Shown piece after piece: positions 24,001-27,000 of a DNA stretch of 64,000 bases. Position 1 is the stretch's first letter. Each line of letters opens with the position of its first letter. Made by a program: the position numbers. This DNA comes from Nitrospiraceae bacterium (GTDB lineage Bacteria; Nitrospirota; Nitrospiria; Nitrospirales; Nitrospiraceae): NCBI GenBank assembly GCA_050246315.1, contig JBFWWG010000005.1, positions 64,001 through 128,000 of the forward strand, read 5' to 3'.

Positions 24001-27000
24001 CCGCCATGGCAAACAGTGCCCACAGTCGATGCGGTCCCCTAGAGGGTTTCTTGAGGTATACCAGAGTGCCAAGCACGCTGCTTGTGACGCAGGTCAACAG
24101 GCCGGACAGGGCGAACGCGTTCATACGAAGCGGGTCGTCCGATGGAGAGACAAAGAATGACGCATGATCGGATGAGTGGCGGTGTATAACGTCATCCCCG
24201 TCGGTTGGTTCCTCAGCTACGAGCGGATGTAAGGAACGTGGCCGACCGGGAACCACAAGGTGGAGGGATTGTGAACGCAAATGAGGCTGATGTGCAAGAG
24301 ACAGTACAGGCCACGCGTCGGGAAAGACCGATCGAAGCGGGTACTACGCGCAGGCATGTTCGGAAGGGCGGGCGTCGCTCGCCGATTTCCGACCATACTT
24401 GAGGTGTGCACGGGCGAATGTGCCATTTGCGACACGCGCGCAAATCGCCAGCTCTCCAGCCAAGACCGAGGCCGCGACGATCTCTGCGAATTTCTTCGCC
24501 TTCCCCTGCCCTGCACATCCCATGAGTTGCAGGCATTCGCGTTGGGTAGCCAAGCCTGTGCCGCCCCCGACCGTGCCGACGAGAAGGCTGGGGAGTTTCA
24601 CGCTGACATAGAGGGCTCCCTCCTCGGTCACTTCGAAGTTGGTTACGCCGACGTGCGAATCCACGACGCACGCGATGTCTTGGCCGCACGCCGTATAAAT
24701 GGCAGTCAGCATATTGGCCGTGTGTCCATTGATGCCGACCATGCCGACGTGAGCCGCGCAGAGTCTGACGGTGTGATAGAAGTCGACCACATCGGAGGGG
24801 TTGACGTGAAATGAGCGTCGGATCAAACCTGCGGGAATCATCGCTTCGGCTAGCACAGTCTTCCCGAATCCTCTGACGAAGTGGTGCGCCGTCACTTTCT
24901 TGATGGAAGAAAAATTAGGTTGGAGATAGAAGCGTCGAGGCTTAACTGCATCCGTGATGAATCGACAAGCCTTCTCGGTCGCAAACGTCACCATATTGAT
25001 GCCCATGGCATCGCCGGTGTCGTAGGAGAACTTCACCACGACATTGCGGTCGAGCAGATGAGGTTCCAACGTCATGAGCTTGGCGTGCCGCGTCGTGCTT
25101 TCGGCATGCTCCTTGATGAGGGGAAAATTCGCATGAAGCCACTCGCAGAATTGCCGAGCGGCCCCTAAGGTGCCGAACGAGAAGATCGGAGAAATATCCA
25201 GTTGATCGTTAAGGATGCTGGTGGTAGCGCCTCCCGCCAACGAAACCAGGAGCATGCCCTCCGTACAGGTATAGGTCAGGGTGCCTTCCGTCGTCGCGAT
25301 CGGCACATAATAAGTGCCTTGTGCGTGTTGCCCATTCACAATCAATGGCCCGGCGATCCCGATTGGGATCTGTGCGGAACCAATGAAGTGTTCGATGTGT
25401 CCTCGCAGGTTATCGGGATTCTCCGAATATCGGCCGATATGGGGCAACTCCGTTTCGCACTTCTTGGAAAGCCAGGCTCGGCGGATATCCGCTGCCTCCG
25501 ACGTATAGTCGTATCGCTTGATCTTGGGAAGCAGATCACTGGTAGACAGGACTGACGTTGCAGAGGGGGCTGCGATCCGGGGTTCGCGTTCATCCGTTGC
25601 AGAAGGCGTCCCTTCAGCCGCTGCCTCTTCGTGAACGGCGGCATCCTTCGTGACATACAAATTTAGAAAGGATTGTCTGCGTGCTCGATCGCCGCGGATT
25701 TCCTGAAGAGCTGAAGCCAGGATTTCTCGTTCACATTCTCCCAGGGCTGTAAACTTGATGCGGGTGCGATGATAAGGCACCCCCCTGATCGTCTTGGGGG
25801 ACGAATGGGTTACTCGACCGGCGAAGTTAAGATGGCACACGTTTCCAAAGGTACAGCGAAGAGGCAGGGAGTTTCGTCCGCCAAGACCGATTGCCGTGTT
25901 CAGGTGGAGGCCCGCAGGGGTGAAGTGATCAGCATGTCCGATGATCTGTTGGTCGTCAACATGGATCAGTACGGGTATCCCAAGACGTACCCGGCCAAAA
26001 GGTCGCACGGGTATGAGTTTACCGGGCCGGAAGCGAGTGTTGGGATTGGTGAGAGGAATCGGCTTGGCACTGGAGGACACGCTTGGTAGGACAGAGGTGG
26101 CAAAGGGCATCACAGCACGCTCCATTCCTGGCCGCCGTCATCCGGAAGGGGGACGACGGGCCTGCAATCAATGGCCTGGCTTGGTGGATTTCCAGAACAT
26201 GTGCGTTGGCATGGATCCTCAGCAGGGAGAATGTCCGACAGGAAATGCGAATGGTTTTCAGGGTCTTGTTGTGTCGAATCTGAACGTGTTCCGAGTTCTT
26301 GTCAATTGATTCGTCGCTCTTGTCAAGAGACCGATGGGTCTTGGATATGTGGGGGAGGCGGGAAGTTGCTCAGAGGAGTTAGTCTTCCTTCGGATTACTC
26401 AACAGGGCGGAGAGTTCTCGGGGCAAGAGGAGGGTGATGAAGGTTGTGGCGTTGGGGCTCTGGTGAAACGCGGCCAGCAATAGCCGCGGTCGTGGGACGG
26501 TGTCGGGAGGAAAGGTCAACAGGGCCGGTACATCGATGACGGACTTGTTCGCTGGAGCGCCCATCAGGCGCAAACGAAGTGCAAGAAGAATATCTCGAAC
26601 ACGGGCTGCGTGTTCCGATTCGGGCACGCTGGCGGAGGCAGTCACCATGGCGTCCCAGGCTGGCTGTGTTATGCCCACGGCGAAGGGGACGCCGAGGTTT
26701 CTCGCCATCGACGTGATTTCAATCCACTCGCCGACATGGAGCACTTGTTCGTGCGGCAGGGCGACATGTGATTGGTCTTCGGCCGTGGATGATTCGGAGA
26801 ATGTTGGACCAAACGAATGACTGCGCTCCTGCCGGCTTGCCAAAAAGGACTCGCCTATTCCGAAGTCTGACCCCTCGTCCCTTGTGGCATGGGGCATTCC
26901 GGAAGTAGGGATGGAAGCCGGATTGAGTTGTTCCGTGTCGGGCGCGAGCGCCTGCCTGATGCCGTTGTAGACGGCGCGGGCGGCTGCCGACCATCTAGGC

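Follow-up and report, generated by a model that had tools for sequence, protein, structure and literature searches.

What does a protein with the fold of HMG-CoA reductase (HMGR) do in a bacterium that makes its isoprenoids by the MEP route, and what role may a PilZ domain at its N-terminus play? The question is raised by a 588-aa fusion encoded in the window, that is, the whole 64,000-nt stretch of a Nitrospiraceae contig analyzed here (Table 1). The genome-wide survey's note had proposed an HMG-CoA/mevalonate oxidoreductase switched by c-di-GMP, and had considered new both this control and a stand-alone role of the enzyme outside the mevalonate pathway. The fusion, its predicted PilZ fold, the catalytic tetrad and the lack of other mevalonate-pathway genes were borne out, while neither the proposed substrate nor the novelty of the stand-alone role was.

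Table 1. Features of the reductase-kinase locus, in window coordinates.
Feature	Position	Strand	Evidence
Sensor histidine kinase: two tandem HisKA_7TM, GAF, HisKA, HATPase_c	21206..24124	-	Pfam; adjacency conserved
Reductase-kinase spacer, 219 nt	24125..24343	-	sequence
Gene of predicted PilZ-module/HMGR-fold (FcrA-like) reductase, 588 aa	24344..26110	-	ORF and translation, Pfam, AF2, Foldseek, RNA-library contigs
Class-I HMGR-fold reductase domain, residues 201-574	24389..25510	-	alignments to 6hr7 and human 1dq8, site tables, TIGR00533, dN/dS
Predicted PilZ-fold barrel and C-terminal helix, residues 36-146	25673..26005	-	Pfam PilZ below cut-off, AF2, VIA-align, dN/dS
Degenerate second c-di-GMP motif H62-F-T-P-A-G67, replacing D/NxSxxG	25910..25927	-	alignments A1 and A4
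RxxxR motif R36-P-F-G-R40	25991..26005	-	translation; column kept in most relatives
Upstream 257-aa protein, no known family	26379..27152	-	no Pfam or NCBIfam match

The genome is 100% complete in 30 contigs and contains a single HMG-CoA_red match. In agreement with the survey, profile searches of this genome yielded no HMG-CoA synthase (HMG_CoA_synt_N, no match at E ≤ 1), and mevalonate kinase and diphosphomevalonate decarboxylase are absent, the best matches scoring 17.2 and 11.6 bits against cut-offs of 163 and 171, respectively. The MEP genes dxs and ispH, likewise reported earlier, both score above their cut-offs. A gene for HMG-CoA lyase (398 bits, above the cut-off) adjoins those of a crotonase and a carboxyltransferase, and judging by these genes the bacterium does appear to make HMG-CoA as a metabolite. 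Among genomes of the same family, the fusion is present in 8 of 371, including this one, and 3 more have an HMGR-like gene only; these counts differ somewhat from the 7 of 370 Nitrospiraceae given by the survey for the HMGR family. A literature search on HMG-CoA reductase in Nitrospira returned nothing relevant.

The reductase reading frame has an earlier in-frame ATG at 26125, and a 95% identical homologue (P0002) is likewise 588 aa long. With the whole protein as a query, Pfam PilZ matches residues 36-133 at E 0.02; with residues 1-206 alone, PF07238 reaches E 0.0031 and 18.2 bits, below the gathering cut-off of 22.5, as the survey had cautioned. Relatives from other families score 26.8-77.6 bits, above the cut-off, and precomputed PF07238 and PF00368 domains co-occur in 32 of the 120 homologues listed and in 29 of the best 60, the same counts as before. 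The AF2 model of residues 1-206 comprises a barrel (residues 41-121) and a helix (125-146) with pLDDT about 90, the mean pLDDT of the full-length model being 75. The best 28 structural matches to the N-terminal model (VIA-align) are all PilZ domains, with Z decreasing from 10.6 to 7.1 before dropping to 5.8; the top one is YcgR (5y6g; Z 10.6, rmsd 3.8 Å, 111 residues aligned). Given the domains and scores of the relatives, the modeled fold and the structural matches, we consider the predicted PilZ fold real in spite of the sub-threshold Pfam score. It is followed by a disordered linker of roughly 55 residues leading to the reductase domain. The genome contains 22 PilZ matches above the cut-off, the number also given by the survey, and the reductase gene is not one of them. 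An HMM of the module detected no further copy of this PilZ subtype in the genome, only weak matches to stand-alone PilZ proteins (best 8e-10).

Whether this module reads c-di-GMP is a separate matter. The c-di-GMP motifs of PilZ domains are RxxxR and D/NxSxxG. The former is present, as the survey noted, and the latter is imperfect, also as noted. The second position is occupied by NLSSGG, DISPSG, DISPGG or DFTPGG in relatives and by HFTP[AT]G or NFTPTG in the closest clade, and the strict pair of motifs survives in no more than 18 of the 59 homologues that are extended at the N-terminus. RxxxR plus D/NxSxxG is the ancestral state of the family, and the orthologue in genome G013 has the canonical motifs; in the orthologous slots of three genomes (G014, G015, and G016) both motifs are gone. 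Since HFTPAG stands in place of D/NxSxxG, with RxxxR kept, c-di-GMP binding by the predicted module of this copy is doubtful. Nevertheless, the module evolves under purifying selection (dN/dS 0.18 against the orthologue in genome G270). Cellulose synthase BcsA and Alg44 (4p00 and 4rt0 are among the fold matches) similarly combine an RxxxR-containing PilZ barrel with an enzyme on which it resides or acts. Unlike in these systems, the predicted PilZ domain here is N-terminal, connected by a disordered linker to what would be a soluble thioester reductase, has HxTxxG at the second motif, and is linked to no polysaccharide synthase.

The C-terminal domain is a complete class-I HMGR-type domain, as first described: residues 207-574 match HMG-CoA_red (PF00368) over profile positions 2-368 of 368 (E 1.5e-108). 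The best PDB sequence matches are 6hr7 (1.9e-88) and then human 1dq8 (1.5e-58), and 6hr7 is also the top Foldseek match (E 5e-34, TMt 0.74). In alignments to both structures, all four catalytic residues, E559, K691, D767, and H866, are kept as E275, K404, D478, and H569. The catalytic columns are invariant in 33 fusion homologues apart from the histidine in one subclade; E275, K404, K405, N466, and D478 are invariant in all 33. Eight relatives (P0026, P0029, P0032, P0033, P0034, P0035, P0036, and P0040) have F or L instead of the catalytic histidine, and one of them, P0036 from genome G480, retains both PilZ and the kinase described below. The class-I HMGR fold and the four catalytic residues imply, by analogy with the family, that the domain should use NAD(P)H to reduce a CoA thioester to an alcohol in a four-electron step. 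The reductase domain is under much stronger constraint (dN/dS 0.026) than the PilZ module.

The residues that contact HMG are Ser684, Asp690, Lys735, and Leu862 (PMC3875450; PMC11948995, whose main text prints the lysine as Lys795). In our protein the pocket is replaced: S684 corresponds to Q397, D690 to I403, and L862 to F565, while the position of K735 falls on H446, T447 or V448 depending on the alignment, in none of which is it a lysine. R449, one to three residues away from this position, is basic (R or K across the nearest subclade), which leaves room for an anionic substrate. Thus, the protein resembles class-I HMGR (EC 1.1.1.34; Methanothermococcus thermolithotrophicus 6hr7, human 1dq8) in its fold, catalytic tetrad and the equivalents of H752 and N755, but differs in the HMG pocket, in its host having no mevalonate pathway, in the N-terminal PilZ where class-I HMGRs have nothing or a membrane domain, and in scoring 341.8 bits against the 441.8-bit cut-off of TIGR00533, the NCBIfam equivalog for HMGR (NADPH).

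The phylogeny gives a similar picture. In a FastTree phylogeny rooted on five canonical sequences, the reductase clade is nested in a non-canonical assemblage; of the roughly 210 class-I-like sequences aligned, only 5 have the canonical S-D-K-L-H signature. Its sister (support 0.88) is a clade of 97 sequences with E-D-x-W-H, the signature given in PMC11948995 (section 19) for FcrA, an HMGR-like fatty acyl-CoA reductase whose substrate is long-chain acyl-CoA rather than HMG-CoA (Grossi et al., 2025, ISME J, PMC11948995). The traits that define FcrA are an NADPH-dependent conversion of acyl-CoA of C14 or longer into the alcohol, inactivity on HMG-CoA and insensitivity to statins. As the tree does not contain the verified Pb-FcrA and Natronomonas FcrA, membership of that paper's clade labeled "FcrA/putative FcrA" is inferred from the signature residues only. 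According to its main text, 12 of 59 modeled putative FcrA may accept smaller molecules, and Natronomonas FcrA has E, G, and W at positions 684, 735, and 862. Like FcrA as described there, our protein combines the class-I HMGR fold and the E/K/D/H tetrad with replaced S684, K735, and L862 and an aromatic residue at 862, and FcrA genes, too, occur in bacteria without the mevalonate pathway and encode variable N-terminal add-on domains. Unlike FcrA, it has Q rather than E at 684, F rather than W at 862, and I rather than D at 690, and PilZ instead of a "Lad" (PF25653-type) or ACP domain; in addition, its gene is paired with a kinase, its genome gives no WS/DGAT match, and it belongs to a separate clade. 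Taken together, the pocket, the equivalog score and the placement beside an FcrA-type clade make HMG-CoA an unlikely substrate, contrary to the survey's proposal, and bacterial class-I HMGR-like genes outside the mevalonate pathway have already been explained in the main text of PMC11948995. This text mentions no PilZ, Nitrospir*, histidine kinase or c-di-GMP; the supplementary domain figure and tree of the paper may bear on PilZ members. Our literature search found no paper on the PilZ-HMGR-like fusion or on its pairing with a kinase.

The reductase gene and a histidine kinase gene form a conserved pair, with the reductase upstream; the kinase has two tandem HisKA_7TM domains and a GAF domain. 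Neither this kinase nor the exchange of enzyme domains described below was mentioned by the survey. The kinase probably starts with the ATG at 24124; its frame is open as far as 24280, and alignments with homologues begin at residue 53 of this longer frame. In the window's family, 90 genomes have a match to the membrane part of the kinase. Such a kinase lies directly downstream in all 15 distinct related loci for which downstream DNA is available, which represent five families of the window's phylum (two classes) and one Elusimicrobia MAG, and whose reductase domains are 46-98% identical to ours. By contrast, it was found downstream of none of the more distant HMGR-like genes at 85 loci. Two of the 15 paired loci (G479 and G468) have no PilZ; at an Elusimicrobia locus (L057), the N-terminus was not recognized as a PilZ domain (hhalign E 0.016, probability 2.8%). 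An overlap of 4-8 nt between the two genes is seen in three lineages of other families. The 257-aa upstream gene was considered as a further partner and rejected: its orthologues flank the slot in genomes G012-G016, G270, and G271, but the synteny is confined to the window's family, and no counterpart was found beside the pair in other families.

No response regulator domain adjoins the kinase in this window (Pfam), and no lipid-assembly genes were detected in the gene neighborhood of the reductase by the same method. An Rfam scan of window positions 20000-29000 gave no match at E ≤ 1, therefore no riboswitch is predicted at this locus. A promoter and terminator scan around the reductase gene produced nothing above shuffled sequences, and the spacer has no terminator-like site. 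RNA-library contigs that are 100% identical to the window cover positions 25254-26255, 24885-25112, and 24177-24471; they come from four libraries of three studies, and DNA carry-over is possible in such contigs. Contigs from two studies end at 24176/24177.

The slot in front of the kinase is occupied by different enzymes in different genomes. In G016 the same syntenic slot encodes a PilZ-HDO fusion, and in G271, a genome of the same genus, a Rossmann reductase joined to a degenerate PilZ (hhalign probability 94.9%). Before orthologous kinases (41-59% identity, alignment A3), the enzyme joined to PilZ can be a heme-oxygenase-like oxidase, 4HBT_2, aldehyde dehydrogenase, KS, KAS III or a LuxD-like acyltransferase-methyltransferase. 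Both PilZ-KAS III loci with long flanks have the kinase (2/2), and in several loci the genes for a sigma54 response regulator and a REC-HD_5 (HD-GYP-type) protein come next. An acyl-chain domain was present in 27 of 39 scanned representatives, which were drawn from the 150 best matches to the module profile, and 3 of these 27 were HMGR-like. Hence this PilZ subtype (barrel plus helix), which in relatives has canonical motifs, is joined to many acyl-chain enzymes. Relatives also include fusions with an acyl-CoA ligase (P0076) or with a hotdog thioesterase (P0047).

How can these observations be combined? The protein would be a soluble two-domain enzyme, the C-terminal domain of which would reduce the acyl thioester of a fatty or otherwise non-HMG acyl chain; this follows from the non-HMGR pocket and from the non-canonical branch shared with FcrA, a reducer of long-chain acyl-CoA. 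The reductase would thereby make or remove a lipid-like small molecule, and the membrane modules of the kinase may sense it. With c-di-GMP as the cue, the PilZ module would gate either the enzyme itself or the way it docks to the kinase; in the present copy, with its degenerate second motif, the c-di-GMP input is perhaps weakened or lost, and the module may keep another, selected, role. The contact between enzyme and kinase and the sensing of the product are our proposal. We hold this reading of the reductase, PilZ module and kinase as a lipid-like signal pair tentatively, giving it slightly less than an even chance. Several observations count against it, namely the differences from FcrA at positions 684, 862, and 690, the presence of HMG-CoA lyase, the lack of a neighboring response regulator, the 219-nt gap, and R449.

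Similar layouts are known: in CqsA/CqsS and PhcB/PhcS, a fatty-acid-type signal synthase is coupled to a membrane sensor kinase. The DSF system RpfF/RpfC/RpfG (PMC5391125) is also similar, since the gene for an acyl-chain enzyme adjoins that of a multi-pass membrane histidine kinase, and a REC-HD-GYP-type protein like RpfG is encoded in the same operon in relatives of our locus. The resemblance is in layout only: the enzymes are not homologous, and, unlike in these systems, our kinase has two HisKA_7TM domains and GAF and our enzyme bears PilZ.

The survey's own interpretation, a genuine HMG-CoA/mevalonate oxidoreductase acting outside isoprenoid synthesis and switched by c-di-GMP, for example to link leucine-derived HMG-CoA with mevalonate, would account for the full-length PF00368 match, the intact tetrad, the 40% sequence identity that the Foldseek alignment to 6hr7 shows with archaeal HMGR, and R449 next to the K735 position, and the lyase gene with its neighbors would supply the substrate. 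It is very unlikely given that all four HMG-contacting residues are replaced, that TIGR00533 is below its cut-off and the clade is outside the canonical group, that the characterized enzyme of the neighboring clade is inactive on HMG-CoA (PMC11948995, section 18), that the genome has no gene using mevalonate, and that relatives swap fatty-acyl enzymes into the same slot. An ordinary lipid-building acyl-CoA reductase would be another solution: the fatty alcohol would enter ether or other bulk lipids, and the kinase would only regulate transcription of the locus, with no signal molecule involved. FcrA-type enzymes do feed wax esters, and perhaps ether lipids, with fatty alcohols (PMC11948995, sections 18 and 20), kinases frequently adjoin genes under their control, and the strong conservation of the catalytic domain agrees with such a function. 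However, the neighborhood is devoid of lipid-assembly genes, and wax-ester synthase (WS/DGAT, PF03007) has no match in the genome, an absence of little weight because the control was positive in 0 of 14 genomes. Moreover, in two lineages the genes overlap and the operon includes a REC-HD-GYP-type gene. Unrelated and even opposing chemistries (thioesterase, aldehyde dehydrogenase, KS, amino-ketone-synthase type, oxidase) precede one orthologous kinase, which a single bulk-lipid pathway would hardly explain, and we regard this possibility as unlikely.

A different solution assigns the protein to the kinase itself, as a "trigger enzyme": the reductase domain would be a sensory or adaptor subunit reporting the acyl-CoA or NAD(P)H state, turnover would be secondary, and PilZ would dock without reading c-di-GMP any longer. 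The constants across the exchanged enzymes are indeed the PilZ module and the kinase, the module is under selection in spite of motif decay here and in the slots of G014, G015, and G016, and there are PilZ domains with little or no c-di-GMP binding (PMC3131395). The eight relatives without the catalytic histidine, P0036 with its PilZ and kinase among them, point in the same direction. On the other hand, the five invariant residues and the stronger constraint on the catalytic domain fit a working enzyme, and PilZ is missing altogether from two HMGR-like genes that are paired with the kinase; we consider this explanation, too, improbable. The preferred reading, an acyl-thioester reductase with a signal-sensing kinase, also has a wider form. 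PilZ-enzyme plus 2x7TM-GAF kinase could be a modular circuit of synthase and receptor for lipid signals made by the cell itself, in which cassette swaps, even within one genus, of reductase, thioesterase, aldehyde dehydrogenase, KS/KAS III, amino-ketone synthase or heme-oxygenase-like oxidase would change the signal chemistry, c-di-GMP would gate the circuit via PilZ, and the REC-HD-GYP output would feed back on c-di-GMP. As a whole this wider form is rather unlikely.

The results correct an attractive and probably wrong annotation: the gene would represent not second-messenger control of mevalonate synthesis, but a regulated member of the recently recognized HMGR-like acyl-CoA reductases. The always-present kinase more likely points to an undescribed lipid-signaling module than to mevalonate metabolism. 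The strict kinase pairing together with the exchange of enzymes at a fixed slot makes the locus a testable candidate for a lipid-based signaling system, and the PilZ-tagged acyl-chain enzymes provide a natural series for testing direct c-di-GMP control of metabolism. To our knowledge, almost nothing is known about cell-cell signaling in the hosts, which are nitrite-oxidizing-type bacteria from wastewater and sludge, where biofilm behavior is of practical weight. If true, the modular circuit would be a new, widespread quorum-sensing-like family in Nitrospirota and other uncultured phyla.

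The reductase gene of the window and its closest listed homologue, P0002, encode proteins of equal length (588 aa) that are 95% identical over 100% of the query; the frame is open up to an earlier ATG at 26125. The genome-wide survey's note had described this protein as an HMG-CoA/mevalonate oxidoreductase switched by c-di-GMP, and its coordinates, domain ranges and weak PilZ score (E 0.0031 in a Pfam scan limited to residues 1-206) were all reproduced by ORF translation and Pfam scanning.

Features of the reductase locus and related loci (window positions unless another locus or the protein is named)
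Feature	Position	Strand	Description
Reductase gene	24344..26110	-	ORF, 588 aa on translation
HMG-CoA_red domain	reductase residues 207-574		Pfam, whole model covered, E 1.5e-108
PilZ match	reductase residues 36-133		Pfam, below threshold (18.2 bits vs cut-off 22.5)
RxxxR motif	R36-P-F-G-R40 of reductase		matches RxxxR
Second c-di-GMP motif site	H62-F-T-P-A-G67 of reductase		aligned to relatives
Partner histidine kinase	21206-24124	-	two tandem HisKA_7TM modules, GAF, HisKA, HATPase_c
Predicted lipoprotein after kinase	20414-21037	-	207-aa ORF, lipoprotein-type signal (…TVTAC)
257-aa protein of no known family	26379-27152	-	just upstream of reductase
RNA-library contigs, X15	25254-26255, 24885-25112		
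RNA-library contigs, X16	24566-24839, 25595-26273		
RNA-library contig, X17	25818-26162		
RNA-library contig, X18	25514-25853		
Carboxyltransferase, crotonase, HMG-CoA lyase in a row	own genome (G000), contig C16:5161-8577 (locus L153)		
REC-PAS-PilZ protein	L169:3893-5245, L170:1732-3081, L172:9697-11913		directly upstream of PilZ-enzyme gene

Judged by its pocket residues, the enzyme is not a canonical HMGR. Its best solved relatives are archaeal 6hr7 (E 1.9e-88) and then human HMGR (E 1.5e-58), and superposition of the model on 6hr7 gave a TMt of 0.74. The alignments equate the human catalytic residues E559, K691, D767 and H866 with E275, K404, D478 and H569, and human H752 and N755 with H463 and N466. 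The residues that hold HMG, in a list taken from the accessible text of PMC3875450 and PMC11948995, are replaced: S684 by Q397, D690 by I403, R590 by I306, and L862 by F565; the alignments differ in placing H446, T447 or V448 at the K735 position, and none places a Lys there. The NCBIfam equivalog for HMGR (NADPH) scores 341.8 bits, under its cut-off of 441.8. Given that R449, at a site where the nearest subclade has R or K and other sequences have F, L or I, adjoins the K735 position, the substrate may carry an anionic group. One subclade of the fusion family (P0026, P0029, P0032-P0036, P0040) has Phe or Leu at the equivalent of catalytic His866 and retains Glu, Lys and Asp; one of these, P0036 (L148:8911-10881, G480), retains PilZ and the kinase.

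According to the accessible text of Grossi et al. 2025 (PMC11948995), the FcrA enzymes, class-I HMGR homologues that form one large monophyletic group, act as fatty acyl-CoA reductases in bacteria without the mevalonate pathway. The paper describes an NADPH-dependent enzyme from 'Ca. Promineifilum breve' that turns acyl-CoA of at least 14 carbons into the alcohol, leaves HMG-CoA unreduced and is insensitive to simvastatin. FcrA keeps the catalytic tetrad, with Ser684 replaced by Glu, the pocket Lys (which appears there as Lys795) by a small residue, and Leu862 by a bulky one, Trp528 (PMC11948995). Among about 210 aligned class-I-like sequences, the canonical S-D-K-L-H occurs in only five, and the most frequent pattern is the FcrA signature, E-D-(V/I/L)-W-H. 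The reductase has Q-I-T-F-H at these sites; its three signature residues differ in kind from those of FcrA, and I403 at the D690 position is unique to the fusion clade. In a FastTree phylogeny rooted on the five canonical sequences and built without verified FcrA sequences, the fusion clade lies within the non-canonical assemblage, sister (support 0.88) to a 97-sequence clade bearing the FcrA signature. Other fusions in this assemblage involve an acyl-CoA ligase (P0076), a hotdog thioesterase (P0047) and a PF25653 N-terminal domain (P0119). A receiver domain precedes the HMGR-like domain in P0057, and in a 900-aa protein (L152:1361-4063, G531) an EcKL/APH-type small-molecule kinase follows it.

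The strongest support for HMG-CoA as the substrate, as the survey's note proposed, is that HMG-CoA should be present in the cell as an intermediate of leucine breakdown, because the genome holds an HMG-CoA lyase cluster. The lyase, on contig C16 (NF004283, 398 bits vs cut-off 246), is accompanied by genes for acyl-CoA mutase, MeaB, methylisocitrate lyase, methylcitrate synthase and an acyl-CoA ligase; the cluster resembles an island for leucine and propionate catabolism, in what is presumed to be an autotroph. The genome (100% complete, 30 contigs) has a single HMG-CoA_red match. Searches of it did not find HMG_CoA_synt_N, and the best matches to mevalonate kinase and diphosphomevalonate decarboxylase stay far under their cut-offs, which confirms that HMG-CoA synthase and mevalonate kinase are missing; the MEP genes dxs and ispH are both clear, again as the note had it. 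Its claim that a stand-alone role for HMGR would be new does not hold, as the accessible text of PMC11948995 already explains HMGR-like genes in MEP organisms. From the pocket residues and the tree, we conclude that the C-terminal domain is a predicted FcrA-like acyl-thioester reductase; given the composition of the tree, the differing signature residues and I403, membership of FcrA proper is not claimed.

The N-terminal part is PilZ as a fold, by its homologues as well as its model. Both PF07238 and PF00368 are precomputed for 32 of the 120 listed reductase homologues (29 of the 60 best), and orthologous fusions of other families score above the PilZ cut-off (26.8, 30.4, 56.8 and 77.6 bits), with one more just under it (19.9 bits). 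The AF2 model of residues 1-206, resting on a 38-row alignment, has a barrel (residues 41-121) and a helix (125-146) at pLDDT of about 90, and disorder in the first 35 residues and at 160-184. In Foldseek, the best match and every high-probability match were PilZ domains; in VIA-align, the top 28 rows were all PilZ, with Z falling from 10.6 (YcgR 5y6g, rmsd 3.8 Å, 111 residues) to 7.1, and the next row had a Z of 5.8.

Binding of c-di-GMP by the copy in the window is doubtful from its motifs. The second motif reads NLSSGG, DISPSG, DISPGG or DFTPGG in relatives and HFTP[AT]G or NFTPTG in the nearest clade. Among the 59 listed homologues whose N-terminal extension is at least 90 residues long, a few of these extensions not being PilZ, only 18 keep the strict RxxxR...[DN]xSxxG pair. 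In the sister genus, the motifs are canonical in the G012 orthologue, and both are gone in the orthologues of G014 and G015 and in the protein at the same slot in G016. The module is still under purifying selection: compared with the G270 orthologue, at an unsaturated dS of 0.16-0.19, the PilZ module has a dN/dS of 0.18, the linker one of 0.33 and the catalytic domain one of 0.026. By its gene content, the genome does use c-di-GMP, with GGDEF matches in four open frames and 22 PilZ matches above cut-off, the reductase not counted.

Contigs from four RNA libraries of three studies (X15-X18) match parts of the reductase gene at 100% identity; such contigs carry neither strand nor level, and DNA carry-over is possible. 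The kinase gene is covered only patchily. Contigs of two studies (X15 record 3, X18 record 27) stop at 24176/24177, about 168 nt past the reductase stop and about 50 nt short of the kinase start; this suggests an RNA end only weakly, if at all. The region's deepest RNA contigs, in two studies, lie on the upstream 257-aa gene (depth 169 in X17, 77 in X18).

The kinase lies directly downstream of the reductase, with a probable start at ATG 24124, 219 nt past the reductase stop. Its tandem HisKA_7TM modules ahead of GAF comprise about 14 predicted helices; Pfam gives two stretches, of which the second scores best in the G016 orthologue. The arrangement recurs in 15 of 15 distinct related loci with downstream DNA: six in the window's genus and the sister genus (G269, G270, G012-G015), G056, four more families of the phylum (G659, G480, G606/G608, G479/G468), one more Nitrospirota MAG contig and one Elusimicrobia MAG. 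In G479 and G468 the pair lacks PilZ, and the two genes overlap by 4-8 nt in three lineages. Such a kinase was found at 0 of 85 loci of more distant HMGR-like genes, at five of which the only kinase signal is a generic core match at a distance of about 1.6 kb or more. Hybrid kinases follow the pair in G480 and G659, as do a sigma54 response regulator and a REC-HD_5 protein in G480. In the window, no response regulator stands beside the kinase, and the operon is minimal. The predicted lipoprotein ORF after the kinase, without matches in Pfam and NCBIfam scans, keeps its place in G270 and G013.

The first ~170 positions of the fusion profile alone match other N-termini in 24 family genomes (E 1e-13 to 1e-33), a tally that, like that of the kinase membrane part (90 of 371 family genomes at E<=1e-25), includes the unpublished G058 and G062, on neither of which the locus counts rest. 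Here the PilZ-plus-helix module is fused to a TENA/heme-oxygenase-like diiron enzyme, KAS III, a 4HBT_2 thioesterase, aldehyde dehydrogenase, KS, or a LuxD-like acyltransferase with methyltransferase, and each fusion is followed by a kinase orthologue 41-59% identical to that of the window (alignment A3). This holds for the PilZ-oxidase in 7 of 7 assessable loci, for the thioesterase, KS and acyltransferase loci, for both KAS III loci and for the two aldehyde-dehydrogenase loci for which longer flanks were taken; the kinase orthologue is likewise downstream in G063, G028 and G038. Several loci have a REC-PAS-PilZ protein upstream of the pair, and a sigma54 regulator and REC-HD_5 protein downstream. 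Since the REC-PAS-PilZ gene adjoins the PilZ-enzyme gene, such operons encode two PilZ proteins; one REC-PAS-PilZ protein also bears a methyltransferase.

The enzyme is exchanged at an identical syntenic slot, bordered by the 257-aa gene and the kinase gene. The sister-genus genome G016 has the PilZ-oxidase there, and the complete genome G271, of the window's genus, a 600-aa protein with a match to the module profile at residues 27-127 (hhalign probability 94.9%, E 4e-8) and a Shikimate_DH/KR-like Rossmann domain as its C-terminus. The 257-aa gene flanks the slot in every family genome examined. Among 1.84 billion representatives, the profile found 288 proteins at E<=1e-10. We scanned 39 of the best 150 (the strongest hits of at least 250 aa and three from lower down); as partner domains these carry KS and oxidase (4 each), KAS III, ACP, HMGR-like and class I/II aminotransferase of the amino-ketone-synthase type (3 each), acyltransferase-methyltransferase, aldehyde dehydrogenase and thioesterase (2 each) and acyl-CoA dehydrogenase (1), and 12 had no second Pfam domain at E<=1e-9.

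The PilZ-plus-helix module and the 2x7TM-GAF kinase are constant, and the enzyme, acting on an acyl chain or its thioester, is variable. The simplest mechanism to cover this would be a maker-and-sensor pair for a lipid-like molecule, with c-di-GMP input entering via PilZ and an HD-GYP-type output, present in the fuller operons, acting back on c-di-GMP. The layouts of CqsA/CqsS and PhcB/PhcS are presumably similar to that of the pair. RpfF/RpfC/RpfG, as presented in the accessible text of PMC5391125, would resemble these operons in layout. Our literature search found no paper on a PilZ fusion to an HMGR-like domain or on the kinase pairing, and in the main text of PMC11948995 the words PilZ, Nitrospir*, histidine kinase and c-di-GMP do not occur. 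The copy in the window may be a reduced form of the system, because its operon is minimal and its c-di-GMP motif eroded. The window newly shows that the c-di-GMP motifs have decayed in this lineage and that, within a genus, the enzyme at a single syntenic slot has been exchanged.
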